From Promethearchaeota archaeon (GTDB taxonomy: Archaea > Asgardarchaeota > Lokiarchaeia > Sigyniarchaeales > SOKP01), in NCBI GenBank assembly GCA_019058015.1, contig JAHLWH010000111.1, positions 1-29,141 of the forward strand: a DNA stretch of 29,141 nucleotides, read 5' to 3'. Positions 7,490-24,353 of the stretch are shown piece by piece. The position numbers and the translations under genes are program-made. How positions within the stretch are numbered: the first letter of the stretch is position 1; each line of letters opens with the position of its first letter. The notes under the pieces were generated by a model that saw only the letters and a list, made by a program, of their open reading frames with translations, was not told the DNA's origin and did no database searches.

Positions 7490-8836
7490 GAACTGTATCT
7501 CATATAGAGTGCATGTTCATCTAATAATATTAATGAAGAGGATTAAAGTTTTAAAAATATTAAGAATATATAGATTAAATTTATAGAGAAAAATGAGATT
7601 AACTGAACAAATACAGGTAAGAGCATCGGCAGAATTATCTAAATTGTGTCATAAATCCAAGAATCTTTATAATTTAGCTAATTGGTATTTTAGACAAGAT
7701 TTCTTCAAATTAGAAAATATTCTTTCTTATTACGATTTAGACTTTATTCTTAAGCATAAAAATACATACAAGGAAATGCCCTCTCAGACTTCTCAGCAAA
7801 TACTTAAATTGGTGAGTAGAAATTGGAAATCGTTTTTTAATGCTAAAAAAGATTACAAAGTGAATTATAAGAAGTATAAACGGAGGCCCAGACCTCCAAA
7901 ATATAAGTCTAAGAATGGAGAATTTATTGTAATTTTTACAAACCAACAATGCAGAATAAAGAATGGTTATCTACATTTTCCAGAAAAGTCTAATCTCAAC
8001 CCTATAAAGACGAGAATTAAAGAAAAATTAAATGAAGTAAGGATAATTCCTAAAGGAGTTTGTTATGTTGTAGAAATAATTTATGAGAAAAAAGAGCAAG
8101 ATTTAAGCCTGGATAAAGATTATAAATTATCTATTGATTTAGGATTAAATAATCTCATAACCGCTGTAAATAATATTGGAGTAAAGCCAATTATTATTAA
8201 GGGTGGGGTTGTAAAATCGGTAAATCAATATTATAATAAGCAATTAGCGTATTATAGAAGTATTGAAAATAAGAAAGGCAATTTTCGGGATACTAAAAGA
8301 ATACAAAAGTTACATTTAAAAAGTAATAATAAAATAAATACCTTGTTTCATAGAATTTCCAAGAATCTGATTGATTATTGTATTAAAAATGATATTGGTT
8401 CAATTGGGATTGGATATAATAATGGGTGGAAACAAAATATCAATATTGGGAAAAGAAATAACCAGAAGTTCGTTCAAATTCCATTCTGTAAATTATTAAA
8501 ACAAATAAAGTATAAAGCAAAATTAAAAGGAATTATTTTTAAAATTACAGGCGAACCATATACTTCTAAATGTAGTTTTCTGGATAATGAACCGATAAAA
8601 AGGCATAAAAGATATTTGGGCAAAAGAATCTCCAGAGGTTTGTTTAGAGCTTCTGATGGGACAATTATCAATGCGGATGTAAATGGAGCTTATAATATAA
8701 TGAAGAAGGCATTCCCAAATTCCATTTCGGTTGATGGAATAGAGGCATTAGGACTAATACCGCAAATAATTAATCAAAACATAGTTGATAATATTATTTG
8801 AAATAAGATTTATCTCCTTTGATAAGTTTTAATAAT
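7490..8836 (+). mobile_element. Putative non-autonomous IS200/IS605-family element carrying only tnpB; ends approximate
   Basis: tnpB without adjacent tnpA; imperfect hairpin at 7490-7518 upstream and hairpins at the 3' end. Confidence 0.5.
7593..8801 (+). CDS. tnpB: TnpB RNA-guided endonuclease (IS200/IS605 superfamily, IS1341-like solo tnpB)
   Basis: N-terminal LCHKSKNLYNLAN, PSQTSQQ, RPPKYK; RuvC-I SIDLGLNNL; GEPYTSKCSFLD; RuvC-III INADVNGAYNI. Confidence 0.93.
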   Translation: MRLTEQIQVRASAELSKLCHKSKNLYNLANWYFRQDFFKLENILSYYDLDFILKHKNTYKEMPSQTSQQILKLVSRNWKSFFNAKKDYKVNYKKYKRRPRPPKYKSKNGEFIVIFTNQQCRIKNGYLHFPEKSNLNPIKTRIKEKLNEVRIIPKGVCYVVEIIYEKKEQDLSLDKDYKLSIDLGLNNLITAVNNIGVKPIIIKGGVVKSVNQYYNKQLAYYRSIENKKGNFRDTKRIQKLHLKSNNKINTLFHRISKNLIDYCIKNDIGSIGIGYNNGWKQNINIGKRNNQKFVQIPFCKLLKQIKYKAKLKGIIFKITGEPYTSKCSFLDNEPIKRHKRYLGKRISRGLFRASDGTIINADVNGAYNIMKKAFPNSISVDGIEALGLIPQIINQNIVDNII

Positions 8837-8855: not shown

Positions 8856-10526
8856 ATGGAAAATGTTGAAAATTTCTTTCAAACTTTTAATCAAGTGCTT
8901 GGAGAAGATATTTTAACTTATTTTGGTAAATTTTATGATTATTTATCTGATTTATTTATAGAAGCATTTATTAAATTAGAAAATGAGACTAAAAATGATG
9001 ATTTCATAACTTATAAAAAAAATATTGAAGGTATTTTTGAGGTCATTTCATTAGGATTAAGAACAATTGGTGTTTCAAGAGAAATGATTATCTCATTTAA
9101 AAATGATTTTCTTAATTCGATTAAAGATAAATATGAAAATATTGATAAATATAGTCAAATAATGGATTTAATCTTAAAGCCTATAATTGAAGCTTCTCTC
9201 ATAGAAATTATTATTCAATATTTTATAAGTGAAGATAAGACCCAACTTTTAAATCTCAATGTTTTCAATTTACTTCCAAAAGGTTTTATTAAAAAAGTTG
9301 AGAATTTTAAAGAATCTTATGTCTCACCTCCAATTGTTGTTTTTTTAAAAAGTGATAAAATTAAGAAGGAACCTACTCCAGTTCCAGTCGAAGTTAGGAA
9401 AATACCGGCGAGATTTATTAAACCTGCAGAAAAAGCTATAATGAATCTTTTAGATAAACTTAAACAACAAAGAATTGATAGTGAAAAAATTCTACATGAA
9501 AAGATACCTATCGAAAACAAGGATGAAGCCACGGAGATCTTAAATAAAATTAGTAAAATTCGAGCTGAGGATCTCTCTCTTATTGAATCAACTGGAGTTA
9601 AAGAATCAATCGAGGAAGTAAAAATAAAAGAATCATTAGATGTTAGAAGTGAAACATTTATTGAATTTTTTGGTAACTTCCCTCAATTATCTCCAATTAT
9701 TAGAAATAAAATTAAAATTAATATTGAAAATTTACAACAACATAATTCTAAAGAGTTTCAAGATTTAGAGACATTCTATTATTTTATTTGCTCTTTTAAG
9801 ATGATGGGTTTAGATTTACCTTATTCTAGAAATGAGATCGTTAATAGATTGCAAAATTTTATCTCAGATAAAGTTTTTTGTGCAGGAATCGGTTCTACCC
9901 CTGATCCTTTAAATGTTTTTTTCGGAACTGCTATTTTTTCCGAGTTTAATTTATTGTCACATGAAAATATTGACATCGGAAAGATAAAAGAATTTATTAA
10001 TGGAGAGCTATCAGATTCTATTCCCTGGAAATTACATCTAAATACATATTCTTTATTAACTCTTAAAATTTTAGGAAAAAATGGAGTTTCTATCCAAAAA
10101 TATCCCGAATTAGAATCTAATTTATTAAAATATGATATCACGACAACCGAAGATTATTATCCAATTATAGATTTATTTGATAAAATTTTTTCTCTTAAAT
10201 TATTAAATAATCTTGGTGATTTAAATGATATTTCTCAAGAATTTCTCAAACAACTAAAACAAAGTATTACAAAAAATGGCTCTATTAATAACAATCTTAC
10301 TGACACTGCTAAATTTCTGCTAATGGCATCTCTATTAAATTTTAAAAATAAAATAAAAGATGATATAAATCAAATGAAAAATTATATTCAAAATGAAACG
10401 ATACTCTTTAGTAATCCAAAACGTATTAAAAAGTTAAATTGGAATGTTGATAATCTTGGATGTAAAATAGAAATTAGGATATTATATTGGATATTATTAG
10501 CATTATCCCAATTCCCAAATATTTAG
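8856..10526 (+). CDS. Hypothetical protein; C-terminal half possibly an alpha/alpha toroid (prenyltransferase/terpene cyclase-like)
   Basis: 556-aa ORF; helical N-terminus, Pro/charged linker, repeat-like segments DLETFYYFICSFKMMG, GSTPDPLNVFFGTAIF, GSINNNLTDTAKFLLMASLL. Confidence 0.55.
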   Translation: MENVENFFQTFNQVLGEDILTYFGKFYDYLSDLFIEAFIKLENETKNDDFITYKKNIEGIFEVISLGLRTIGVSREMIISFKNDFLNSIKDKYENIDKYSQIMDLILKPIIEASLIEIIIQYFISEDKTQLLNLNVFNLLPKGFIKKVENFKESYVSPPIVVFLKSDKIKKEPTPVPVEVRKIPARFIKPAEKAIMNLLDKLKQQRIDSEKILHEKIPIENKDEATEILNKISKIRAEDLSLIESTGVKESIEEVKIKESLDVRSETFIEFFGNFPQLSPIIRNKIKINIENLQQHNSKEFQDLETFYYFICSFKMMGLDLPYSRNEIVNRLQNFISDKVFCAGIGSTPDPLNVFFGTAIFSEFNLLSHENIDIGKIKEFINGELSDSIPWKLHLNTYSLLTLKILGKNGVSIQKYPELESNLLKYDITTTEDYYPIIDLFDKIFSLKLLNNLGDLNDISQEFLKQLKQSITKNGSINNNLTDTAKFLLMASLLNFKNKIKDDINQMKNYIQNETILFSNPKRIKKLNWNVDNLGCKIEIRILYWILLALSQFPNI

Positions 10527-11523: not shown

Positions 11524-11827
11524 ACCTTTTTAATATTTTTTATTATCATCAAAATTTTTTTAATAATAAGTTCTTATAATTCAAATTTTTAAAACTCCTA
11601 AAAAAAAAATATAATATGCGCATAATATTAGTCTGTGGGTTGAAATTTTTAATAACGATTCTATTTTTGTCGTATGTTGTTCTTACTGCTTGGAGGTTTA
11701 TTATTTTTGTCGGTACATATAAAAATGAAATCTTTGAAAATTGTTCTTATTAGCATCTAATTACTAAAAAAATATTTTTTTTCGAAAATAGTAATCTTTA
11801 ATTAATTTCAAAACTAATTTTCTAAAA

Positions 11828-12604
11828 ATGAAATCAAAAACTAATCTGAAAAAAATGAAGTATCATAGTATACTTCTTTATGGAATAAGTTTTTTTCTGA
11901 TTTATTTTGTTTCATTTGGTATTCCAGGAATTCTTTTTATTACATTTATCAATTCTTTTTTTATTCCTCAAGTATTAAATGCTTCAAATTTTCTGGATCT
12001 TTTTACGAATCTAAACTCTCTTATTATTTTAATTATTACTCCAATTATTATAATTGTATGTTATTTATTACATTTATTCATAATAGCAATTAATTTAAAG
12101 ATAGTTTTTTATTATACAGAGAAAAAGGAACCTACTAGAGATGGTATAATTCCAAGAGATTTCCCTAATAAAGCCTTAAAGTTTTATCATGTAAGATCAT
12201 TTATTTTAAAGTATCCGAAATGGGCTTTTTCAAAAAGTCCATTCCCTTGGCTTACTATTAAATTATTTAATTTTATTGGTGCAAACCAGATGGGAAAAGG
12301 CACAACACTTGAAGAACAAGTTGTTGGTGATAAATTAATTAAAACGGGAAAAAATTGCTATTTTGGAGTAAATAGTGCTTTAGCTAGTCATTTAGTAGAA
12401 GGGATTTCTGGAAATGTAAATTTCTTTACTATTAAAATAGGAAATAATGTTACATTTTCAGCCTTTGGATTGGTAGGTCCAGGGACGGAGATAGGTGATA
12501 ATGTAGCCATACTTCCAATTTCTGCTGCGCCAAAGCATAACCAATTGAGAAGTAATAATTATTATTTTGGATTACCCGTAAGAAAAATATTTAAAAAAAA
12601 ATAA
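11828..12604 (+). CDS. Membrane protein with left-handed beta-helix (hexapeptide repeat) acyltransferase-like domain, paralog 1; C-terminus probably cut short at an A9 run
   Basis: Two N-terminal TM segments; IKTGKNCYFGVNS, IKIGNNVTFS, GTEIGDNVAI repeats; YFGLPVR end motif. Confidence 0.8.
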   Translation: MKSKTNLKKMKYHSILLYGISFFLIYFVSFGIPGILFITFINSFFIPQVLNASNFLDLFTNLNSLIILIITPIIIIVCYLLHLFIIAINLKIVFYYTEKKEPTRDGIIPRDFPNKALKFYHVRSFILKYPKWAFSKSPFPWLTIKLFNFIGANQMGKGTTLEEQVVGDKLIKTGKNCYFGVNSALASHLVEGISGNVNFFTIKIGNNVTFSAFGLVGPGTEIGDNVAILPISAAPKHNQLRSNNYYFGLPVRKIFKKK

Positions 12605-12658
12605 AAGAATGTACTGGATTAACCGAAGACCAAATCATAATCAAAAAAAAATCAAGAG

Positions 12659-13528
12659 ATGTATAAAGATATGAAAGAATCAACAGAATTTACGGAATCT
12701 ATGGAATTAACTATTGACGTTCTTACAGGAAGCGGAATGCCTAAGGATGCTTTGAAATTTTTATGGTTTTATATTCCGATTATATGGTTTGCCGGAACAA
12801 TAACTTTAATACAATTCACATCCTTTTGGAAGGATTTTTTTGGTATACCTATACTTTTTTATTTATTATTACCATTTGTGATATTTGGCGATATTTATAT
12901 TTTTCTTGGTCTTTCATTGTTTTTTACTAAACTATTATTAATTTTTATAAATCTTATTCATAAACCAAAAGAAGGAATTTTTCATATTAGAGAAGAGAGA
13001 AGAGTTTATCTTTTTTGGTGCATCAGAAAATTACTAAAAAAATTTGTAATATGGTTTGCAAGAAATACCCCTCTCCCATATGTTGATATTATAGCTTTTA
13101 GATGCTTGGGAGTGAAAGTGAATTTTTCAAATTCAATATTAGACAGCTGGTTAGATTTAGAATTTATTGAAGCTGGAAAAAAGGTTTTTATTGGACAAGG
13201 TTCAACGGTTTGTAGTGGCATCGTTGTTGGAAATTATTTAATAATAAAAAGGATAATATTTGAAGATCTCGCTATAGTTGGGGGTCATTCTGTTGTTTCT
13301 CCAGGAACAATTATCCGAAAAAACGCAATATTGGGTGCTGCATCAATTACTAGCTTTAACCAAGAATTAGAAAAAGATTGGGTATATATGGGGATTCCAG
13401 CAAGAAAATTTAAACTAAATAAATATGCCGAAAGTAATAGAGAGATTATTATAAAAAAGGACGTCGAATTTAGAGAGACATCTATAGTTAAATATAAAAA
13501 AATAGAAAAAAAAGAAGGTGAAAAATAA
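12659..13528 (+). CDS. Membrane LbetaH acyltransferase-like protein, paralog 2 (start may be ATG 12671 or 12701)
   Basis: TM segments, HKPKEGIF, RCLGVKV, IEAGKKVFIGQGS, VVSPGTII, WVYMGIPARK. Confidence 0.82.
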   Translation: MYKDMKESTEFTESMELTIDVLTGSGMPKDALKFLWFYIPIIWFAGTITLIQFTSFWKDFFGIPILFYLLLPFVIFGDIYIFLGLSLFFTKLLLIFINLIHKPKEGIFHIREERRVYLFWCIRKLLKKFVIWFARNTPLPYVDIIAFRCLGVKVNFSNSILDSWLDLEFIEAGKKVFIGQGSTVCSGIVVGNYLIIKRIIFEDLAIVGGHSVVSPGTIIRKNAILGAASITSFNQELEKDWVYMGIPARKFKLNKYAESNREIIIKKDVEFRETSIVKYKKIEKKEGEK

Positions 13529-13551
13529 CGGCGACTCCTGTATCTTTAAAA

Positions 13552-14358
13552 ATGGCTCCTTTTACGGCAAGTGTTATAGCTAAAAAGAGATATTTTATTA
13601 TATATTTTATTTTAATATGGGGAAGTTGCATTCCTCCCATTTTACAATTTTGGTTTTTTTGGAAAATTCTAAATATTAATGAATTATTATTTTTTTCTCT
13701 TTTGCCATTAGAATTTCTTCTTTTTTATTTAACTTTAGTTTTTAGTTCAATATTTTTTGCAAAAATAATCTTAATTTTTGTAAATTTATTTCATAAACCT
13801 CGAGAAGGTGTGTTCAAAAGAGATCCTAAAAATAGAGATTATTGTTATTGGAGCCTTCGATCAATGATTATAAAATGGCCAGCATGGATCAGTCATTCAT
13901 TCCCCGTTCCTTGGCATGATGTAATTTTAATGAAAATATTTGGAGTAAAAACAAATTTTTCAAACTCAACTTTTGATGGATGGATAAATTGTGAATTTAT
14001 TGAATTTGGAAATAGTATATCGGTTGGTCAAGCTGCGATAATATTATCTTCAATGATTATTAGCGATTATTTAATCATTAAAAGAGTTAAAATAAGAGAT
14101 AATGTAATCATTGGCTCGCATTCAGTTATTTCACCTGGAACAATTATTGGAAAAAATTGTATACTTTCTGCATTTTCTTATACTATGGTTGACCAAGAAT
14201 TAGAAGAAGGTTGGGTTTATATAGGGATTCCAGCAAAAAAATATAAAGAAAATAAATTTATAAAGACTGAAAAAGAGTTAAAGATTAAAAAAAAATTAAA
14301 GGAATCAGAAAAATGGGATAGTTACATTGAAAAACGGGAGAGTATCACGTCAAAATAG
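13552..14358 (+). CDS. Membrane LbetaH acyltransferase-like protein, paralog 3
   Basis: TM segments, HKPREGVF, KIFGVKT, IEFGNSISVGQAA, VKIRDNVIIGSHSVISPGTIIGKNCIL, WVYIGIPAKK. Confidence 0.82.
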   Translation: MAPFTASVIAKKRYFIIYFILIWGSCIPPILQFWFFWKILNINELLFFSLLPLEFLLFYLTLVFSSIFFAKIILIFVNLFHKPREGVFKRDPKNRDYCYWSLRSMIIKWPAWISHSFPVPWHDVILMKIFGVKTNFSNSTFDGWINCEFIEFGNSISVGQAAIILSSMIISDYLIIKRVKIRDNVIIGSHSVISPGTIIGKNCILSAFSYTMVDQELEEGWVYIGIPAKKYKENKFIKTEKELKIKKKLKESEKWDSYIEKRESITSK

Positions 14359-14402: not shown

Positions 14403-15383
14403 TTAATCTAATTCCTTTGGAATATATCCATAAGTCTCTTTAAATTTGGTTTTAATAGTTTCGAAATTATATTCCTGAGATTGCGCTCCCATTGATTGAA
14501 CAATAAAAGAACCAATAACGGATCCTAATTTACAAGCATCTTCTAATGACATTCCCTTGACTAATCCCGATAAATAACCAGCACGATAGCCATCTCCTGC
14601 TCCCGTTGGATCAATAACATCATTAACTTTGCAGCAAGGAATTTCATATTTCATATTTTTTTCTTTAAAATATAAAATCGAACCATTTTCACCCATTGTT
14701 ATTATAACAATTGGTATCAAATTGTAAAGCTCATCATCAGAGAAGTTGGTTTTTTGTTTAATAATCTCAATCTCATTTTCGTTGCAAATCAATACTTGAG
14801 CTTTTTCAAAAATATTTATCAATTCTTGATGTTGAAATAATGGGAGCACTTGTCCAGGGTCAAAAATGAAAGGTATTCCAAGTTCTTCTAATTCTTCTGC
14901 AAAATGGATCATGGCTGGAACACTCTGAACTGAATTAATAGCAAAAAAATATTCGTTAGGATCTTTAATTTTCGATTTTAGTGAGAAATCAACGTTTTTG
15001 TCCAATGCTCCACCATGAAAAGTTATCATTTGATTTTTTGAATTATCATTTACTACAAAACATGCTGCAGTGTATAAATCATCATATATTTCAATAAGTT
15101 GATTTATCTTCTCAAATTTATCTAAATGCTCCTTATAACCAAGACTTATGAAGTCCTTTCCGACTGAACCACATATATCACAATGAATACCCAATTTACC
15201 AATATGATAAGAAATATTGCCTGCAGTCCCTCCAAATTGACAAGTTCTAGAACTGGCAGTTACAATTGATTGATATTTTCGATTCTCTACATCAATGCTA
15301 ACAACATCTAAGAAGTTTTTATCGAAATTCATAATATGATCATATGCAATAGAACCTAAAACCAGAATTTTATTCTTGTTCAT
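14403..15383 (-). CDS. PfkB/ribokinase-family kinase, nucleoside/adenosine kinase-like
   Basis: GSIAYDHIM, FGGTAGNI, FDPGQ, CNENE, DPTGAGDGYRAG. Confidence 0.9.
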   Translation of the reverse strand: MNKNKILVLGSIAYDHIMNFDKNFLDVVSIDVENRKYQSIVTASSRTCQFGGTAGNISYHIGKLGIHCDICGSVGKDFISLGYKEHLDKFEKINQLIEIYDDLYTAACFVVNDNSKNQMITFHGGALDKNVDFSLKSKIKDPNEYFFAINSVQSVPAMIHFAEELEELGIPFIFDPGQVLPLFQHQELINIFEKAQVLICNENEIEIIKQKTNFSDDELYNLIPIVIITMGENGSILYFKEKNMKYEIPCCKVNDVIDPTGAGDGYRAGYLSGLVKGMSLEDACKLGSVIGSFIVQSMGAQSQEYNFETIKTKFKETYGYIPKELD

Positions 15384-15611
15384 ACTTATTTCTAAATTAA
15401 AAATAATTAATATTAAAAATTAATCTTACGTTCAATCTAAAAAAAAGTAGTGGTAATTAAAATTTAATGTATATAATTTCGGATTTCTTTATTTTTTTTT
15501 ATCTTTTCTATTTTTAAATATAGTATTCAAATATGATTTATATAAGATTAATATTAACAGCATTAATTCAAAATCAAAAGACATAAAAGATTTCAAATTT
15601 TTTCTTACACA

Positions 15612-17042
15612 ATGGTTGATGATCAACAAGACTTTGACAAATTTGATACTTTATTCCATCCTAAACATATAGCTTTTATTGGAGCTTCAGAAAAATCAGC
15701 TCTCGGATCTATGCTTTTTTTGAGATCTTTTAAAAACTCTCAATGGTCAGAAACTTTTTATCCAATTAACCCAAGAAGTGAAAAAATTCTTGATTGGAAA
15801 TGTTATCCTTCTGTTCTAGATGTTCCATATCCTGTTGATACGGCTTATATTTCCACAAAGACAAAATATATCCCAAAAATAATGAAGGAATGCGTTGATA
15901 AAAGAATTCCTTGGGTGATAATTTTTTCCTCTGGATTTTCTGAGACAGGAGATCCTGAGAGAAAAAAATTAGAAAGGGAAATAGTGGAGATAATTAAAAG
16001 AACTGATACAAGAGTTATCGGCCCCAATTGTTTAGGACCTTTTAATGGAGAAACGGGGATGGCATTTACTTTTTCTACTCCATTTGGAGTTCCTGGCTCA
16101 GTTTCTTTTATGAGCCAATCTGGAGGGCACCTCACTCAATTAGTTGATGTGGGTTTCAAACGTGATCTTAGATTTCGATATGGTATTTCATTCGGTAATC
16201 AGATAGATTTAAATTGTTTAGATTTCTTAAGGCATTTCCGTAGAGATATTAAAACAAAAGTAATTGCTATATATTTAGAATCTTTTGGATCCGCAAATGG
16301 TCATGAATTTTATTTGGAATTGAGAAAGACAACCAAAACTAAACCAGTTATAATTTGGAAAGGTGGATTTACAGAAGATGGTTCTCATGCGGCCTTTTCA
16401 CATACAGGAGCTATAGCTTCAAATCAAAAATTATGGGACTCAATGGCAAAGCAAACAGGGGCAATCTTAGTAAAAAATAATGATGAATTTTGGAATATAA
16501 TAAAAACTATAGAATTATTATTCTCAAATCATCTTCCCAATGGAAGAAATGTAGGAATTATCACCCCTGGTGGTGGATCATCGGTAAATGTTACTGATTT
16601 ATTTGCATTTCACAATTTAAAGGTTCCTATGTTAACATCGAGGTCTCAAGAAAAAATTGCAAATATTCTGCCAGATGTTAATGTGAATATCAAGAATCCG
16701 ATAGACTTAGGGGCTTCCGGGTTTATTTTAGATATTTTTGCAGATTGTATAGAGATTGTAGTTGATGACCCAAATATTGATATAGTTATCGTTCCATTAT
16801 GGCCAGATCATTTGTATCGACATGTTTTCAATAGAATGATTAAAATTCAAAAAAGAATTTCAAAACCATTTGCTTTTTGCTTGCCCAGCATTGCAGATTC
16901 TATTGAATTGGCAAAAAAATTTAATATTGTTAAGAAAAATTTACATAAAAACCGTGTTCTTTACTTCTTTTCTTTAAAAGAGGCTGCAAAAAGTATTTCC
17001 CTATTTTGTGATTATTGTGATTATTTAAATTTTGGAAGATAA
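15612..17042 (+). CDS. acdA: ADP-forming acyl-CoA synthetase alpha-type subunit (CoA-binding protein)
   Basis: PKHIAFIGAS, YPINP, YPSVLDVP, IGPNCLG, SQSGG, phospho-His motif SHTGAIA, NPIDLG. Confidence 0.85.
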   Translation: MVDDQQDFDKFDTLFHPKHIAFIGASEKSALGSMLFLRSFKNSQWSETFYPINPRSEKILDWKCYPSVLDVPYPVDTAYISTKTKYIPKIMKECVDKRIPWVIIFSSGFSETGDPERKKLEREIVEIIKRTDTRVIGPNCLGPFNGETGMAFTFSTPFGVPGSVSFMSQSGGHLTQLVDVGFKRDLRFRYGISFGNQIDLNCLDFLRHFRRDIKTKVIAIYLESFGSANGHEFYLELRKTTKTKPVIIWKGGFTEDGSHAAFSHTGAIASNQKLWDSMAKQTGAILVKNNDEFWNIIKTIELLFSNHLPNGRNVGIITPGGGSSVNVTDLFAFHNLKVPMLTSRSQEKIANILPDVNVNIKNPIDLGASGFILDIFADCIEIVVDDPNIDIVIVPLWPDHLYRHVFNRMIKIQKRISKPFAFCLPSIADSIELAKKFNIVKKNLHKNRVLYFFSLKEAAKSISLFCDYCDYLNFGR

Positions 17043-18346
17043 TCTTTTTGCAACTCAATCATTTCGTTAAAAATTGCTTCAGCCATTTCGGCATTTCCCA
17101 CATTTGGATCGATGGTTAGACATTGTAATGCAATTTCACAGGATCTTTTTATGACAGCATCAATACATAAATCCTGCACACATGCTTCGATGCGAAGTAA
17201 TGCTGCTATACCTTTAGGCAAATTACCGATTTTTATACCATGAACCCCATCACCATCAACCCACACAGGTCCTTCGATTATTAAATCTTGAGGTAAATTA
17301 TCTATAAATCCATCATTCGGTATATTTACTGAACTTTCATAACTCTTTTTGCCTGTAATAATTGCTTCAATTATCGGAATCGCACGCTCACCAGTAGAAT
17401 GTTGAGGTAATAACCTCATCCTTTTAAATGTTCCTTTTTTAAAACGTCTATGAAATCTCATAATGCGATCGTAAATTGCCTTTCCGCCTTGGTCGGTATG
17501 ATCAATCCAATCTATCATATCCTGAGTTTTTGTAAATTCCTCTCCAAATTGCAGATATTCACCTAGATGATTATCACAAGCATATGAAAAATATCCAAAT
17601 TTTTTATAAACCTCAAATGTTAATTCAGAATATTCAAATCGATTTTTAACCTTATTAAGATAATTTAAAGATTTTTTATTAAATTCTGGCATTAAGTTTT
17701 TGCCTGTTTTAAAATCTACTAACCCAATTAAAAAACCAAAGTGATTTAATCCAACAGCAGTTATTTTAAAATCTTCAAGTTTTTTATTAAACATTTTTGG
17801 GAGATTTTTATTCAAATAACCGATTTGATGACACAGGCCAATAAATTCTAAACTTTTTGTGCTTCTTTTAATTGCTAAACATACCCTTGACATAGGATTT
17901 GAGAAATTAATAAAAAATGCATTAGGACAAATCTTTTCAACGTCTTTTACAATTTCTATGATCGGTGGAATTATTCTGAATGCATGAAAAGTCCCCCCAG
18001 GACCTCCACATTCCCCCAGAATCTGGGTTGAGCCATATTTTCTCGGTATTTCATAATCTTGCCTCCATAATTCCATTCGATCACCAACCTCTATAGAATT
18101 TATTACGAAATTAGCATTTTCAAGGGCTTTTTGACGATTTGTGGTGTGCTCGATAGTGAAATCCTTCCCTAATTTTTCATTTTCATTAACAATTAATTCA
18201 TAAATTATTTCTAATTTCTTTTTATCAATATCATGCAATACAATAGTTGAACCTTGTAAAATGTTGCTTAAAAAAATATCAGTGAGCATTGAGGGTCCAA
18301 ATGAAGTACTGCCTGCTCCAATTAATACAATACGGTGATTCGGCAT
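17021..18346 (-). CDS. Glycoside hydrolase family 4 (NAD+-dependent alpha-galactosidase/glucosidase, MelA-like)
   Basis: IVLIGAGSTSF, GECGGPGG, INFSNPM, GLCHQ, GLNHF, DNHLGEY. Confidence 0.92.
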   Translation of the reverse strand: MPNHRIVLIGAGSTSFGPSMLTDIFLSNILQGSTIVLHDIDKKKLEIIYELIVNENEKLGKDFTIEHTTNRQKALENANFVINSIEVGDRMELWRQDYEIPRKYGSTQILGECGGPGGTFHAFRIIPPIIEIVKDVEKICPNAFFINFSNPMSRVCLAIKRSTKSLEFIGLCHQIGYLNKNLPKMFNKKLEDFKITAVGLNHFGFLIGLVDFKTGKNLMPEFNKKSLNYLNKVKNRFEYSELTFEVYKKFGYFSYACDNHLGEYLQFGEEFTKTQDMIDWIDHTDQGGKAIYDRIMRFHRRFKKGTFKRMRLLPQHSTGERAIPIIEAIITGKKSYESSVNIPNDGFIDNLPQDLIIEGPVWVDGDGVHGIKIGNLPKGIAALLRIEACVQDLCIDAVIKRSCEIALQCLTIDPNVGNAEMAEAIFNEMIELQKDYLPKFK

Positions 18347-18481
18347 TTTTTTTTAACTTTTCTTTTATTTGCTGAATTTATTAAAAAAAATTAAGTTTTT
18401 TAATAAAAGACTATATGTTTAAATATTAATTGATTAATTATACAAATAACTAATTGTTTAAAATTTTGATGGGGGCATAAA

Positions 18482-19912
18482 TTGACACAAATGTTTGGTA
18501 CTTCCGGAATCAGAAAGGTTTTTAAAAATTACGGGGGAACTGAAGCTCATTTTACTCCAGAAATGGCGTTAAAGTTAGGATTAGCTATAGGTTCGTATAT
18601 TAATGGGGGTGTTGCAATAATCGGTAAAGATATCCGCATTGCCGCATTACCAATTGAACACGCATTAATCGCTGGTCTTATTAGCACGGGATGTAAGGTT
18701 AAGACCGTTGGCATAGTTACAACACCAACTCTTGCAATGTCTTGCAAAATTCTTAATGGAGATTGCGGAATTATGATAACTGCATCACATAACACTCCTG
18801 AATATATTGGTGTCAAGCTATGGAACCCATCCGGCCTAGGGTTTTCAGCCGAACAGGAAGAAACAATTGAAGATATATATAATAAAGAAAAGTTTAACAA
18901 AACCGATTGGCGGGGCATTGGCAGTGCTACACCAGTGTATGACCTTAACGAGTTTCATGTTAATGATATTTTAGAAAAAATTAAAATCCCAAGAGATAAT
19001 CATCTTCATTTAATTGTAGACCCCGGGAATGGTTCTTCGTGTGATATTCTCCCAATAATTCTTAATAAATATAATATTAAATATATGACAATTAATGCGC
19101 AAATGGATGGATCATTTCCAGGAAGATTATCTGAACCTAACAAAGAAAATTTAAACCAATTAAGTAAATTTGTTAAAATCTCAGATGTCCAAGACATAGG
19201 AATTGCTCTTGATGGTGATGCAGACAGAGTTATTTTTATTGCTGAAGATGGTAAGTTAGTTGACCCAATTAGATTACTTGCTTTATGTGCAAAAGACATA
19301 CTGACAGAAAATGGCGGAATACCCGAAAAAGATCGAAAAATAGCAACCCCAATTAATAGTTCAAGCCTGCTTGAAAGATTACTAGAACCATTAGGTTATG
19401 AGGTAATTAGAACTGAGGTTGGAGACATTAAAGTTGCAACAGCATTAAAGGAAAAGGGAGGCATTCTTGGTGGCGAAACCAGTGGTACATATATCTGGCC
19501 AAAATACCACTACGGACCTGACTCTCTTTTAACTATAGCGTATGTTTTAGAGATGTTAAATAGAAAAGGAAAACCATTAAGAGAATTATTAAAAGAGATT
19601 CCGGATTTTCCATTTGTTCGAGAGAGTTTTCAATTAAAAGAAGATATTCCTTTTACTAGAGAAGTAAATGAAAAAACAATAACAGAAATGAATAATTTGT
19701 TTCAAAATTTGGGCAAAGATCATGTTAAAATAAATAAATTAGATGGCGTTAGATTTGATTATCAAGAAGGCTGGGTGATGGTGAGAAGAAGCGGAACATC
19801 TCCTAAATTAAGAATTTCTGTTGAATCAACAATAGATATTCCTCATGCTGAAGAAATGTTAAAATTAACACAAAAAAGGATGGAAAAATTAGGTTTAATT
19901 AAAGAATATTAG
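18482..19912 (+). CDS. Alpha-D-phosphohexomutase (phosphoglucomutase/phosphomannomutase/GlmM-like)
   Basis: FGTSGIR, phosphoserine loop TASHNT, metal loop DGDADR, sugar loop GGETSG, VRRSGTSPKLR. Confidence 0.92.
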   Translation: MTQMFGTSGIRKVFKNYGGTEAHFTPEMALKLGLAIGSYINGGVAIIGKDIRIAALPIEHALIAGLISTGCKVKTVGIVTTPTLAMSCKILNGDCGIMITASHNTPEYIGVKLWNPSGLGFSAEQEETIEDIYNKEKFNKTDWRGIGSATPVYDLNEFHVNDILEKIKIPRDNHLHLIVDPGNGSSCDILPIILNKYNIKYMTINAQMDGSFPGRLSEPNKENLNQLSKFVKISDVQDIGIALDGDADRVIFIAEDGKLVDPIRLLALCAKDILTENGGIPEKDRKIATPINSSSLLERLLEPLGYEVIRTEVGDIKVATALKEKGGILGGETSGTYIWPKYHYGPDSLLTIAYVLEMLNRKGKPLRELLKEIPDFPFVRESFQLKEDIPFTREVNEKTITEMNNLFQNLGKDHVKINKLDGVRFDYQEGWVMVRRSGTSPKLRISVESTIDIPHAEEMLKLTQKRMEKLGLIKEY

Positions 19913-21028: not shown

Positions 21029-22111
21029 TTAAGGTTTTAATAATTCCCAATTGATATATTTTTCTATAATTTCTAAAGCAATCTGTTTTTCTTCTGGTTG
21101 AATTCCCGGTTTAATTCTTTCTATATTATATAAGGTCGTGTATGTATCACTGGGGCTTAACAAAAGCGGAATACCTAATTCATCTGCTTTTACTTTAACT
21201 GAAATGTCTGGATGGATATAGCCAGTTAGGATGATTACAGAAACATTAGATTCGAGAGTGGCTAAAATTAACTCACTTCTATCTCCACCAGTAATACAAG
21301 CAGCATTTATACTCTGTCTAACATACTTCATAGCGCTAGGAACATCCATAGCTCCAATTAATATTGATTTAACATTTTTATTCATAGATTCGTCTGGTGG
21401 ATTGTTTATTAATTCAGCACCAATGCCTTCCATAATTTCTAAAACTGTAGGTTCTGATAATGAGGGATCTTTTTGAATTATACCTACTAAAGGGATGTCA
21501 TATTTTTCGATATGTTTTTTCTGTAATTCTTTGACTCTTTCTACATAGTCAAAATCGATTTGATTCATAATAAGCCCATTTATTTTCATTTCTCTAAAAT
21601 CGAGGTACTTCTTTGTAAAAAGTAATGTATCTACAAAATTATCAGTAGAAATATCTAATATAAAATATATTCCATCGATTCCTAATTCTTTTGCAATTGT
21701 AACATCATCTAGTCCAACTCGGCAATAATATCTAAAATTAGGCGTTCCCTCAATAATAACCATATCGCAATCTTGTTTAATTTTCTCATAAGCCTTTTTA
21801 ATTTTCTCTGTATATTCAGTTCTTTGTTCAATATCTATATTATCAATATAATAATTAGGGGTAATTGATACAGGACAAATCGTATCTATATCATGCTCAG
21901 ATTCAATAATATTCATAAAAATAAACGAAACATCGCGATCAGCCTTGTTGGTTAATGCTCCAATTGGTTTGCCCACAGGTTTGAAATATTTAACTTTATA
22001 ACCTTCTCTCTTGAATTTTTGGAGCAATCCTATAGCAATTAGAGTTTTACCAGCTCTTTCATTAAATGAACTCAAATATATTGTTTTTACCAATTTTTCT
22101 CTCACATGCAT
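21029..22111 (-). CDS. Phosphotransacetylase N-terminal-like protein (BioD-like P-loop plus DRTGG domain)
   Basis: ERAGKTLIAIGL, YFKPVG, IIEG, CITGGDRSEL, LSPSDTYTT. Confidence 0.88.
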   Translation of the reverse strand: MHVREKLVKTIYLSSFNERAGKTLIAIGLLQKFKREGYKVKYFKPVGKPIGALTNKADRDVSFIFMNIIESEHDIDTICPVSITPNYYIDNIDIEQRTEYTEKIKKAYEKIKQDCDMVIIEGTPNFRYYCRVGLDDVTIAKELGIDGIYFILDISTDNFVDTLLFTKKYLDFREMKINGLIMNQIDFDYVERVKELQKKHIEKYDIPLVGIIQKDPSLSEPTVLEIMEGIGAELINNPPDESMNKNVKSILIGAMDVPSAMKYVRQSINAACITGGDRSELILATLESNVSVIILTGYIHPDISVKVKADELGIPLLLSPSDTYTTLYNIERIKPGIQPEEKQIALEIIEKYINWELLKP

Positions 22112-22166: not shown

Positions 22167-24353
22167 TTAAGATTTAATTGTAATTTTAATATCAACAGCG
22201 GAACATCCTTTAACAAAGGATAATAAAGGATTTATATCTAATTCTACTATCTCAGGAAAATCATTTACTAATTGAGAGAGTTTAAGAAGTACATCAATAA
22301 CAGCATCGATATCTGATGGAGGCTCGCCACGAACTCCTTGGAGTAAAGCAAAAATTTTAGTCTGAGATAATAAATTAACTGCATCTTCTCTTGTAAATTT
22401 ATATGTTAATGAGAATGCAACATCTTTAATGAAATTGGCATAAATACCGCCACTACCTACCATAATCATCGGTCCGAAAGTAGGATCTCTACTCATCCCC
22501 AAAATTAATTCATTTACTTTTAGTTGGGCTTTAAAATCTATCATTTCTTGAATTTCTATACCATAAATCTTTGCATTTCTATGTCCAAATTTTTTTACTT
22601 TTGTCATAATTTGAGTATATGCTTCTCTTGCTTGTTTTTGGTCAATAATATTCAATAAAACACCTCCCACATCAGTCTTATGTAAAATCTGAGGGCTTAC
22701 AACTTTCGCTACTAAGGGAAAACCCATCTCATTACTTGTTTCAAAAGCTTGTATTGGAGAGCGGACTAATTTTGATTTTGGCGATGGAATTCCATAAATT
22801 TGAAATATTTCATTAGTTTCATAGCTCAATAATACTGAGCGATTATCTTTACGTACTTCTTCAAAAATCTCATTAACTCTATTTTTATTAACATTAAATT
22901 TCTCAATATTAATACTTTTTAAGGGTTGTCTTATCTTATTTTCACAATACTTTACCAACACTTTTAAAGTTTGAGCAGCTCGGCTTGGAAAATAATAACA
23001 TGGTATATGATTGTCATTTAATAATTTTTGTCCTTCCGCAATATTTTTTCCACCAATAAAAGAACAAACCATTGGTATATCAGGAATTTTTTTTGATGTT
23101 TCAAGAACCAGACTTGCAACATCAGTTGGTCTTGTTAACGCTTGAGGTGCAAGAATAAGGCAGCATCCATTAGGAATCTCTTGATTTGGCATATCTCCTT
23201 TAGTGGACTCACTAATAGAATTTTTATCAAAATTGGAATCTAATCTAAAAATAGTATTAAGTGTAAATCTATATCTTTCTGGCGTTGCATCTCCTACTAT
23301 ATCAACAGGATTAAATATACTTGCCTCTGCCGGTAAATTTTCTCTCAATTTATGAAGTATATCTTCTGGAAATTTTGTAAACTTTAAGCCTTCCCGAGAA
23401 AAAGCATCTGCTGCGACGATGCCAGGACCTCCAGCATTACTTATAATAACAAAAGAATTTTTTTTTGGTAAAGGTTGAAATGCAAAAATTTCTCCGAAAT
23501 CGAATAAATCTTCAATAGTTTTTGCTCTAATTACACCTGTCTTTTCAAATGATAAATCATATGCCCTATCAGAACCTGCTAAGGCTCCAGTATGACTTGA
23601 TGCTGCTTTTGCACCTTGTTCAGATATGCCAGATTTCAGAATTACTACAGGTTTCTTTCTTGTAATTTCAGATACAACCTCTAAAAAGCGATCTCCATCA
23701 ATAACATTTTCTAAATACGCAAGAATAACTTTTGTATTGTCATCATCTGCTAAATATTTTAAAAAATCGACAAGTGTTAAATCTGCTTTATTACCCAAAG
23801 ATATACAACAAGAAAAGCCAAAAGTTCGACCCATTGAATAATCTAACATCCCTGTAAGCATAGCACCTGACTGTGATATGATTGCTATATTTCCTTTTTT
23901 GGGTTGATCAGCTGCAAAGGTTGCATTATAATTAAGACCCATAAAGCCCAAACAATTAGGGCCTAAGATACGAATGTTATTTTCTCTGCATATTTTAGCC
24001 AATTCTAACTCTCTTTCAACCCCATCTCCACCAACTTCTTTAAATCCTGCAGTAATTACGATTAATCCCTTAATTTTTTTTTGTGCGCATTCTTTTACTA
24101 CATTAACAATATACTTTGCAGGAATTACAATAACGCAAATGTCAATATCTTCTTTTACATCTAATACGCTTTTATAACATTTGTATCCAAGAATTTCACT
24201 GGCTGAAGGATTAATTGGATATAATTTTCCTTTATATCCTGAATTTTTTATATTTTTTACCACACTATTTCCAATTTTAGTTTCATTTGCGCTTGCTCCT
24301 ATAACTGCAATACTATCAGGATTAAAAAAATAACCTAAATCACTTTCCGCCAT
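22167..24353 (-). CDS. acd: ADP-forming acetate/acyl-CoA ligase, fused alpha-beta
   Basis: CoA-binding domain (IAVIGAS, GPNCLG, SQSGA, SHTGALAG, NAGGPG, NPVDIVGDA) plus ATP-grasp (GFPLVAKVVSPQILHKTDVGGV, DPTFGP, ELDINPL). Confidence 0.93.
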   Translation of the reverse strand: MAESDLGYFFNPDSIAVIGASANETKIGNSVVKNIKNSGYKGKLYPINPSASEILGYKCYKSVLDVKEDIDICVIVIPAKYIVNVVKECAQKKIKGLIVITAGFKEVGGDGVERELELAKICRENNIRILGPNCLGFMGLNYNATFAADQPKKGNIAIISQSGAMLTGMLDYSMGRTFGFSCCISLGNKADLTLVDFLKYLADDDNTKVILAYLENVIDGDRFLEVVSEITRKKPVVILKSGISEQGAKAASSHTGALAGSDRAYDLSFEKTGVIRAKTIEDLFDFGEIFAFQPLPKKNSFVIISNAGGPGIVAADAFSREGLKFTKFPEDILHKLRENLPAEASIFNPVDIVGDATPERYRFTLNTIFRLDSNFDKNSISESTKGDMPNQEIPNGCCLILAPQALTRPTDVASLVLETSKKIPDIPMVCSFIGGKNIAEGQKLLNDNHIPCYYFPSRAAQTLKVLVKYCENKIRQPLKSINIEKFNVNKNRVNEIFEEVRKDNRSVLLSYETNEIFQIYGIPSPKSKLVRSPIQAFETSNEMGFPLVAKVVSPQILHKTDVGGVLLNIIDQKQAREAYTQIMTKVKKFGHRNAKIYGIEIQEMIDFKAQLKVNELILGMSRDPTFGPMIMVGSGGIYANFIKDVAFSLTYKFTREDAVNLLSQTKIFALLQGVRGEPPSDIDAVIDVLLKLSQLVNDFPEIVELDINPLLSFVKGCSAVDIKITIKS

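Follow-up and report, generated by a model that had tools for sequence, protein, structure and literature searches.

Three tandem genes of a Promethearchaeota archaeon encode a split relative of the Pls/PosA terminal module

The 29,141-nt stretch of DNA analysed here (the window; positions 1 to 29,141 of contig JAHLWH010000111.1, our C105) belongs to assembly GCA_019058015.1 of a Promethearchaeota archaeon, a 3.84-Mb genome that is 94% complete (G000, the source genome below). Its plus strand carries three adjacent open reading frames (ORFs) at 11828-12604, 12659-13528 and 13552-14358, encoding proteins of 258, 289 and 268 aa that we call P1, P2 and P3. Each is predicted to form a membrane hairpin followed by a left-handed beta-helix (LbH); in P1 the hairpin would have its N-terminus inside and be joined by a linker to an LbH bearing a putative catalytic signature. 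A first, sequence-only reading of the window had taken the three genes for paralogs resembling a split version of the terminal module of the Pls/PosA polymer synthetases, and we followed up this proposal. The genes are separated by 54 bp (P1-P2) and 23 bp (P2-P3). Upstream of P1 lies an AT-rich intergenic spacer of 304 bp (11524-11827), which holds no plus-strand ORF of at least 60 aa and is the presumed promoter region. The gene beyond the spacer is divergent, and a PfkB kinase gene located 44 bp downstream of P3 is convergent; because of this arrangement, P1-P2-P3 looks like a self-contained three-gene operon. As to the start of P3, the N-terminal motif of P3-type proteins (S.P.SLK.GPFT) runs in frame for at least 5 codons upstream of the ATG at 13552, to about 13528, overlapping the P2 stop codon (13526-13528), and there is an in-frame TGA at 13519-13521. 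This region (13519-13560) may thus reflect a non-ATG start or a shortened N-terminus.

The ORF list and the translations bear out the description of three adjacent, co-oriented paralogs. P2 shares 45% identity with P3 across 221 aa (E 2e-66), while P1 shares 25% with P3 across 208 aa (E 5e-20); by sequence comparison the three are paralogs with a similarity far above chance. The motifs listed earlier are found in the translations, namely FIGANQMG in P1, RCLGVKV in P2 and KIFGVKT in P3, together with P..G and Y.W..R segments after the second helix and a C-terminal GLPV (P1) or GIPA (P2 and P3). Hexapeptide repeats were detected above the Pfam cut-off (Hexapep, PF00132; 27 bits) in P3, at 33.5 bits, but not in P1 (18.1 bits) or P2 (19.9 bits), while hhalign matched the modules to E. 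coli LacA at 95-97% probability over 53-109 columns, including 95-96.5% for all of the P1, P2 and P3 types. Two membrane helices per protein were found by a strict hydropathy scan in P1 and agree with the structural model described below, but the same scan gave one strong helix in P2 and three peaks in P3. In the three proteins, Lys plus Arg residues number 3-5 ahead of helix 1, 0-1 in the loop and 7-9 beyond helix 2, a distribution that fits hairpins with both termini inside and a cytoplasmic LbH.

In connection with Pls and PosA, TIGR02353 (NRPS_term_dom) was the top NCBIfam match for all three proteins, at 26.2 bits for P1, 31.2 bits for P2 and 45.4 bits for P3, and the highest score with this model in the source genome was 67.7 bits. 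The search of the single proteins that the proposal called for thus returned the expected family without placing the proteins in it, as the curated cut-off is 423.1 bits; P0115, a natural archaeal fusion of three modules, reached only 54.3 bits. Weak matches to TIGR02353 are unspecific, and we therefore checked the resemblance independently with a family profile and with hhalign. The profile, made from 18 family members and searched against 1.84 billion representative proteins, gave 19,117 matches at E<=1e-3, of which 2,112 reached E<=1e-10 and 226 reached E<=1e-30. The best 150 of these 226 included 19 proteins of 1296-6612 aa, each with exactly three matched stretches, and in most of their repeats the match extended from about position 12-60 to about position 240 of the 286 profile positions, membrane helices and linker included. 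All three of the long proteins that we scanned were true Pls/PosA synthetases, with TIGR02353 scores of 590, 603 and 471 bits and an amino-acid adenylation domain. When six archaeal module types were compared by hhalign with the C1, C2 and C3 repeats of 15 Pls proteins, the probabilities were 97.7-99.6% over 110-199 columns. Homology to the TIGR02353 domain was thus found over the whole repeat, across the second membrane helix and the linker.

This coverage bears on another explanation, in which the proteins are generic sugar O-acetyltransferases of the LacA/WcaF type that have acquired a membrane anchor and have no special relation to Pls/PosA. Matches to WcaF, LacA, Maa and NeuD models, as well as the generic isoleucine-patch acetyltransferase names in databases, are in keeping with it. 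We nevertheless consider it extremely unlikely, given that the alignments with Pls repeats take in the second helix and the linker and that the family profile recovers Pls-type proteins at E ~1e-36 to 1e-41, in three stretches each. On these comparisons, P1-P3 are specific homologs of the polymerization domain at the C-terminus of Pls/PosA, beyond a kinship with LbH proteins in general, and the resemblance noted earlier is real. Judged by curated threshold and by domain make-up, the triplet is at the same time outside TIGR02353: its three repeats lie on three genes in the window rather than on one polypeptide (relatives have 2+1 and 3-in-1 fusions), and none of the three ORFs has an N-terminal adenylation (A) or thiolation (T) domain.

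The AlphaFold2 model of P0115 (797 aa; 19-row alignment; mean pLDDT 80.6, pTM 0.82) shows, three times over, a pair of long helices that is followed by a strand, two more helices and an LbH. This is the same succession of elements as in the published PosA model, as far as the relevant section of that paper describes it: six bent membrane helices under three left-handed beta-helices in approximate threefold symmetry, with a strand and two helices between each helix pair and its beta-helix (AlphaFold/RoseTTAFold; PMC10522769). Profile and fold searches of the PDB returned soluble LbH enzymes and no solved counterpart, the best fold matches of a single module being maltose and galactoside O-acetyltransferases (target TM-score 0.55-0.62). 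A complex prediction of P1, P2 and P3, with an alignment of its own for each chain, scored 0.81 against 0.73 for a control in which chain 2 was replaced, and we used it as evidence in neither direction. Together, the independent profile, fold-model and comparative evidence supports the view that the triplet is a Pls/PosA-type module in split form that lacks A and T domains.

The comparative part of this evidence concerns the way in which the modules are combined. A tree of 61 modules keeps the P1, P2 and P3 types apart, with 19 rows in the P1 clade, including unlinked single genes (P1s), and with further clades for P2, P3 and the two members of a doublet (Da and Db); every complete set consists of one member of each kind. 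The 12 modules of the source genome are spread over five loci. Two of these are triplets (the one in the window and a second on C96), one on C74 combines a fused P3~P1 gene with a P2 gene, C125 carries a doublet, and C98 carries an unlinked single. The same pattern of three triplets, doublet and single, again with 12 modules, is seen in a complete genome of the same genus (G004), and two other genomes contain 15 (G008) and 16-17 modules (G014, where two modules lie at contig ends), with 4-5 sets per genome. In all 14 complete triplet loci of four genomes the gene order follows the cycle 1-2-3 and never the reverse, as P1 P2 P3 in seven loci, P3~P1 P2 in six and P2 P3~P1 in one, although these loci include orthologs and represent fewer than 14 independent events. 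Fusions likewise join unlike types: the 264 typed database proteins include 18 P3-P1, six P1-P2, three P3-P1-P2 and one P1s-Da fusions, and among low-scoring two-module proteins of other subfamilies there are two P2-P1 and three P3-P2 cases. Among the typed proteins, none was clearly a fusion of two full modules of like type; P0013 is listed as P3-P3 and is only 317 aa long.

In the P2-type gene of the second triplet (C96:1169-2110, minus strand; L028), no ATG, GTG or TTG precedes the first membrane helix. The frame stays open up to the end of the P1 gene, which uses another frame, and P1~P2 fusions are present in relatives (P0111-P0114, P0116). This anomaly could be due to a frameshift, to an error in the assembly or to the use of a non-canonical start.

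An asymmetry among the types became apparent when 57 archaeal modules were aligned jointly with 45 Pls repeats, the columns being numbered as in P1 of the window. At the column of His188 (codon 12389-12391), His is found in 14/14 P1, 4/4 P1s, 5/5 Da and 15/15 Pls C3 modules, and is missing from every P2 (0/15), P3 (0/14), Db (0/5), C1 (0/15) and C2 (0/15) module. Lys at the column of Lys236 (codon 12533-12535) is common to 14/14 P1, 4/4 P1s and 15/15 C3 modules and occurs in no other type. The column of Glu191 (codon 12398-12400) is Glu or Asp in 14/14 P1 and 15/15 C3 modules and is less exclusive, with Glu in 8/15 C1 and Glu or Asp in 4/5 Db and 1/4 P1s modules. Much the same was observed in 42 further P1 modules from databases (His in 38, Glu/Asp in 39, Lys in 42) and in 13 further P1s modules (His in 13, Lys in 11). 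By hhalign, the signature His falls on His115 and the Lys on Lys166 of E. coli LacA, and this holds equally for P1, P1s, Da and Pls C3. In LacA the catalytic residue is His115, and the H115A substitution costs about 90% of the activity, according to the passage of PMC12775004 that deals with it. Within the window, only P1 has the equivalent of this His, the residue being Gly187 in P2 and Ser167 in P3. The His / Glu-Asp / Lys pattern, which is present in window P1, serves as a C3-type marker that was derived in this analysis and is uncurated. As the signature is found in P1 alone of the three window proteins and, among the Pls repeats, in C3 alone, it suggests an obligate pseudo-trimer with one active centre.

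The types, sets and signature also bear on whether ordinary tandem duplication might instead have made P1, P2 and P3 into three acetyltransferases that are anchored in the membrane, form homotrimers independently of one another and each act on a substrate of their own. LbH acyltransferases of the classical kind are homotrimeric, the three genes are paralogous, and the best structural matches are the two O-acetyltransferases named above. Even so, this appears improbable, in view of the 1:1:1 ratio of the types over genomes of several genera, the cyclic order in all of the triplet loci, the recurrence of unlike-type fusions with no clear like-like fusion, and the lack of the LacA His115 equivalent from all P2 and P3 modules. 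The same four features (distinct types in 1:1:1 ratio, natural fusions, cyclic order and an asymmetric catalytic signature) back the earlier suggestion that the three products form one unit.

A non-catalytic unit built from LbH domains, whether it served as a scaffold or an anchor or worked like a channel or a sensor, would have an analogue in the heterotrimeric gamma-carbonic-anhydrase-like module of mitochondrial complex I. Subunits of that module are among the PDB sequence matches (7ar9 chains, E 8.7e-9 with the P1 profile), and two of the three subunits of the triplet lack the catalytic His. Nearly invariant His188, Glu/Asp191 and Lys236 in P1 are, however, the pattern expected under selection for catalysis, and the nearest characterized homologs are enzymes, so that we regard a purely structural role as quite improbable too.

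If the unit is an enzyme, the nature of its donor comes into question. The PP-binding carrier domain PF00550 has no match in the source genome (94% complete); the earlier reading had noted the lack of an adenylation or carrier domain in the window. In the taxonomic family, PF00550 is present in 4/41 genomes and LbH modules in 40/40. LbH acyltransferases and Pls both accept thioesters on a pantetheine arm. Since no carrier was found in the genome and these enzymes use pantetheine thioesters, the acyl donor would most likely be an acyl- or aminoacyl-CoA thioester. The source genome encodes 17 AMP-binding enzymes above the Pfam cut-off, none of which adjoins a family locus, the nearest being about 13.5 kb from the C98 gene.

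These numbers are pertinent to another possibility, namely a true Pls-like polymer synthase acting in trans, in which a free-standing enzyme would activate the monomer (as an aminoacyl-adenylate, an aminoacyl-CoA or another thioester) and the heterotrimer would polymerize it and extrude the polymer via the six-helix bundle. In the nearest relatives that have been characterized, amino acids are polymerized while the growing chain stays free rather than enzyme-bound, as stated in PMC9205021. P1 retains the C3-type signature, and both the supply of AMP-binding enzymes and the presence of 4-5 sets per genome are in keeping with such a pathway. Against this stand the lack of carrier domains in the source genome, the distance of the AMP-binding genes from all family loci, the lack of a conserved partner beside the triplets, and the low TIGR02353 scores of the archaeal modules (26-54 bits); on balance, we consider this pathway unlikely.

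The reading that we prefer, and hold to be somewhat more probable than its negation, is that P1, P2 and P3 are three unlike subunits of one membrane-anchored, pseudo-threefold LbH acyltransferase with one catalytic centre, in P1, and a CoA donor. The observations comprise the homology and architecture of the proteins, the ratio in which the types occur, their fusions, the order of the genes and the pattern of residues. Beyond these, we infer that the subunits assemble as a heterotrimer, that there is one active site and that CoA carries the donor, as well as what the acceptor may be. Each subunit would consist of a hairpin of two long helices with both ends inside, followed on the cytoplasmic side by a strand, two helices and the LbH coil, and in the assembled heterotrimer three beta-helices would form a bundle above six membrane helices. 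The single catalytic centre would lie at an interface of P1, with P2 and P3 as non-catalytic partners, and the His of P1 would be the equivalent of the LacA-type general base, acting together with Glu/Asp and Lys. An acyl- or aminoacyl-CoA thioester would serve as donor, and the acceptor would most likely be associated with the membrane, for example as a lipid head group or lipid-linked glycan, or be a product that is passed through the helix bundle.

Several observations weigh against this heterotrimeric acyltransferase. The weak TIGR02353 matches say little by themselves, since 13 of 14 control genomes also give such matches, one of them over the cut-off. Four of the 42 further P1 modules are without the His. 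In the doublet-plus-single set two subunits, Da and P1s, bear it, and 'one active site' is therefore not general. A locus in G026, a genome of another family, has two modules only, and no conserved neighbour points to a substrate of the triplets. The evidence that P1, P2 and P3 act as one unit is comparative, their mutual binding would be a further step, and the identities of donor and acceptor are conjectural. Finally, the maximum-likelihood tree puts the archaeal modules in one clade and the Pls repeats in a second, leaving P1 and C3 ungrouped. Constraining P1, P1s and C3 together costs 26.7 log-likelihood units, and with an approximately unbiased (AU) p of 0.188 the constraint is not rejected. 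Orthology of P1 with Pls C3 was thus not recovered in the tree. The shared His, Glu and Lys may therefore have been retained from a common ancestor or acquired by convergence, and shared descent of the signature is no more than a possibility.

As to the acceptor, we looked for genes associated with the family loci. Clustering of 302 flanking ORFs at 25 loci gave no partner common to paralogous triplet loci. The sequence-only reading had proposed that an acyl-CoA synthetase gene near the triplet might supply the donor. This gene (15612-17042) encodes an alpha-like ADP-forming acyl-CoA synthetase with CoA_binding_2 and Succ_CoA_lig domains and no ATP-grasp part, and alpha-like genes are found near three paralogous loci in all, those of the window and L047 and L048 of G008. 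The three genes are, however, different paralogs (27-31% identical) out of about 11 per genome, and the orthologs of the L047- and L048-linked genes sit elsewhere in the source genome; as the association is not kept in orthologous loci, the link is weak. The window also holds a paralog of the 15612-17042 gene at 22167-24353 (728 aa, 35.5% identical over 352 aa), which is adjoined by a DRTGG/AAA_26 gene at 21029-22111.

The doublet and single loci are syntenic across three taxonomic families of the order. A gene for a glycerophosphodiester phosphodiesterase (GDPD; PF03009) lies within about 4 kb of the unlinked P1s gene in 16 of 24 loci (L026 at C98:12485-14615, L042, L048, L056 and L059-L078; three of the flank stretches are cut by contig ends), that is, in 11/13 loci of family f1, 5/9 of f2 and 0/2 of f4. 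In three genomes the P1s and GDPD genes lie directly side by side, 33-67 bp apart and pointing the same way. As the source genome has four GDPD-like ORFs, the chance expectation is below 1% per locus, although inherited synteny may inflate the count. The window triplet has no GDPD neighbour. The P1s-GDPD linkage is the sole conserved functional lead on the acceptor, and it concerns the ancestral doublet/single set. Beside the Da-Db doublet of the source genome, a divergent gene encodes a coiled-coil protein (C125:11043-11843; L029); such a gene is present at 6/6 doublet loci examined, in three taxonomic families, and a RagA/Arf-like GTPase gene at 5/6.

Taken further, the heterotrimeric acyltransferase would be part of a broader picture, in which Lokiarchaeia and some other Asgard archaea possess a carrier-independent, Pls-type membrane polymerase/acyltransferase in 4-5 differentiated heterotrimeric sets per cell that builds or decorates membrane or surface molecules, possibly with lipid head groups as targets in view of the GDPD linkage, and that works with one catalytic repeat (P1, equivalent to Pls C3) and two helper repeats. 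We offer this picture tentatively and would not expect it to hold in full.

Relatives of P1-P3 in public collections are labelled Lokiarchaeota or Promethearchaeota. Family matches occur in 31/31 close relatives, and 74 of 201 sampled genomes of the phylum have a match at E<=1e-25, with full coverage of the taxonomic family of the source genome (40/40) and of f2 (3/3), a patchy presence in f10 (5/5), f19 (4/5), f21 (6/6), f24 (9/10) and f9 (4/43), and none in the remaining families. Split forms are also found in records labelled Helarchaeota and in one labelled Nanoarchaeota. Database names are 'hypothetical protein' or generic ones such as 'acetyltransferase-like isoleucine patch superfamily enzyme', and a protein atlas search returned Promethearchaeota clusters named 'acetyltransferase' or hypothetical and nothing else. 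A full-text literature search, limited to one collection, gave no description of the archaeal triplet family, in agreement with the earlier statement that no such archaeal system has been described. Among public sequencing runs no RNA run was listed, and four runs of one study contained about one third of the sampled words.

No operon link to the triplet is evident for the sugar-metabolism genes that lie around it on mixed strands at 14403-19912, namely the PfkB kinase gene (minus strand), a family 4 glycosyl hydrolase gene (minus strand) and a phosphoglucomutase/phosphomannomutase gene (plus strand). At 7593-8801 there is a TnpB-like gene with OrfB_IS605 and Cas12f1-like TNB domains, and at 8856-10526 a 556-aa ORF that matches no Pfam family at E<=0.001.

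In the parts of the literature that we consulted on this point (PMC10522769, PMC9205021), the division of work among the three Pls/PosA repeats is unsettled, and the search of the PDB returned no solved structure of the polymerization domain. A natural three-gene version in which one gene only carries the LacA-type His leads to a direct hypothesis, namely that C3/P1 is the catalytic repeat, and the split form offers subunits that can be expressed and mutated separately. If the hypothesis is true, this form would expose a working asymmetry of the whole superfamily, with one catalytic and two helper repeats. For Asgard biology, the analysis flags a large family, with 12-17 modules per genome, that is annotated only as hypothetical and whose probable site of action is the membrane, in organisms with a largely uncharted envelope and lipid biochemistry.

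Lastly, we compared the archaeal triplet with known systems. The gamma-carbonic-anhydrase-like module of plant and protist mitochondrial complex I consists of three unlike LbH subunits on a membrane complex. It shares this composition and weak sequence matches (7ar9 and others) with the triplet, as an analogy only, whereas its anchoring is different and it has no Pls-type hairpin or linker. O-acetyltransferases of the LacA/Maa type share the LbH fold, and LacA uses acetyl-CoA as donor and has His115 and Lys166 aligned with His188 and Lys236 of P1; these enzymes are, however, soluble, form homotrimers in which all three active sites are equal, and have no membrane hairpin, while P2 and P3 are without the His. 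There are also stand-alone fused proteins of 650-960 aa (for example P0156, P0184 and P0170), which have three hairpin-LbH modules and no A or T domains. They score 168-184 bits with TIGR02353 and are thus nearer to that family than the archaeal proteins are, and they differ further in being single polypeptides that are at least partly bacterial (P0184 has an Elusimicrobiota member; P0170 has an N-terminal SDR domain); they are uncharacterized. The closest comparison is with Pls and PosA themselves, the epsilon-poly-L-lysine and delta-poly-L-ornithine synthetases. Like these, the triplet has a repeat of two membrane helices, a linker of a strand and two helices, and an LbH, three times, with the linker motifs P..G after helix 2 and G.K.G and a terminal G.PA, and with the His / Glu-Asp / Lys signature in one repeat, C3 in Pls and P1 in the archaeal triplet. 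Unlike these, the archaeal module is split into three genes or 2+1, is present in 4-5 sets per genome, has no adenylation or carrier domains, with no carrier found in the genome, and lies far below the family cut-off. What is known, then, is the fused module that ends the bacterial poly-lysine and poly-ornithine synthetases, and what is new here is a Pls-type module cut into three archaeal genes.

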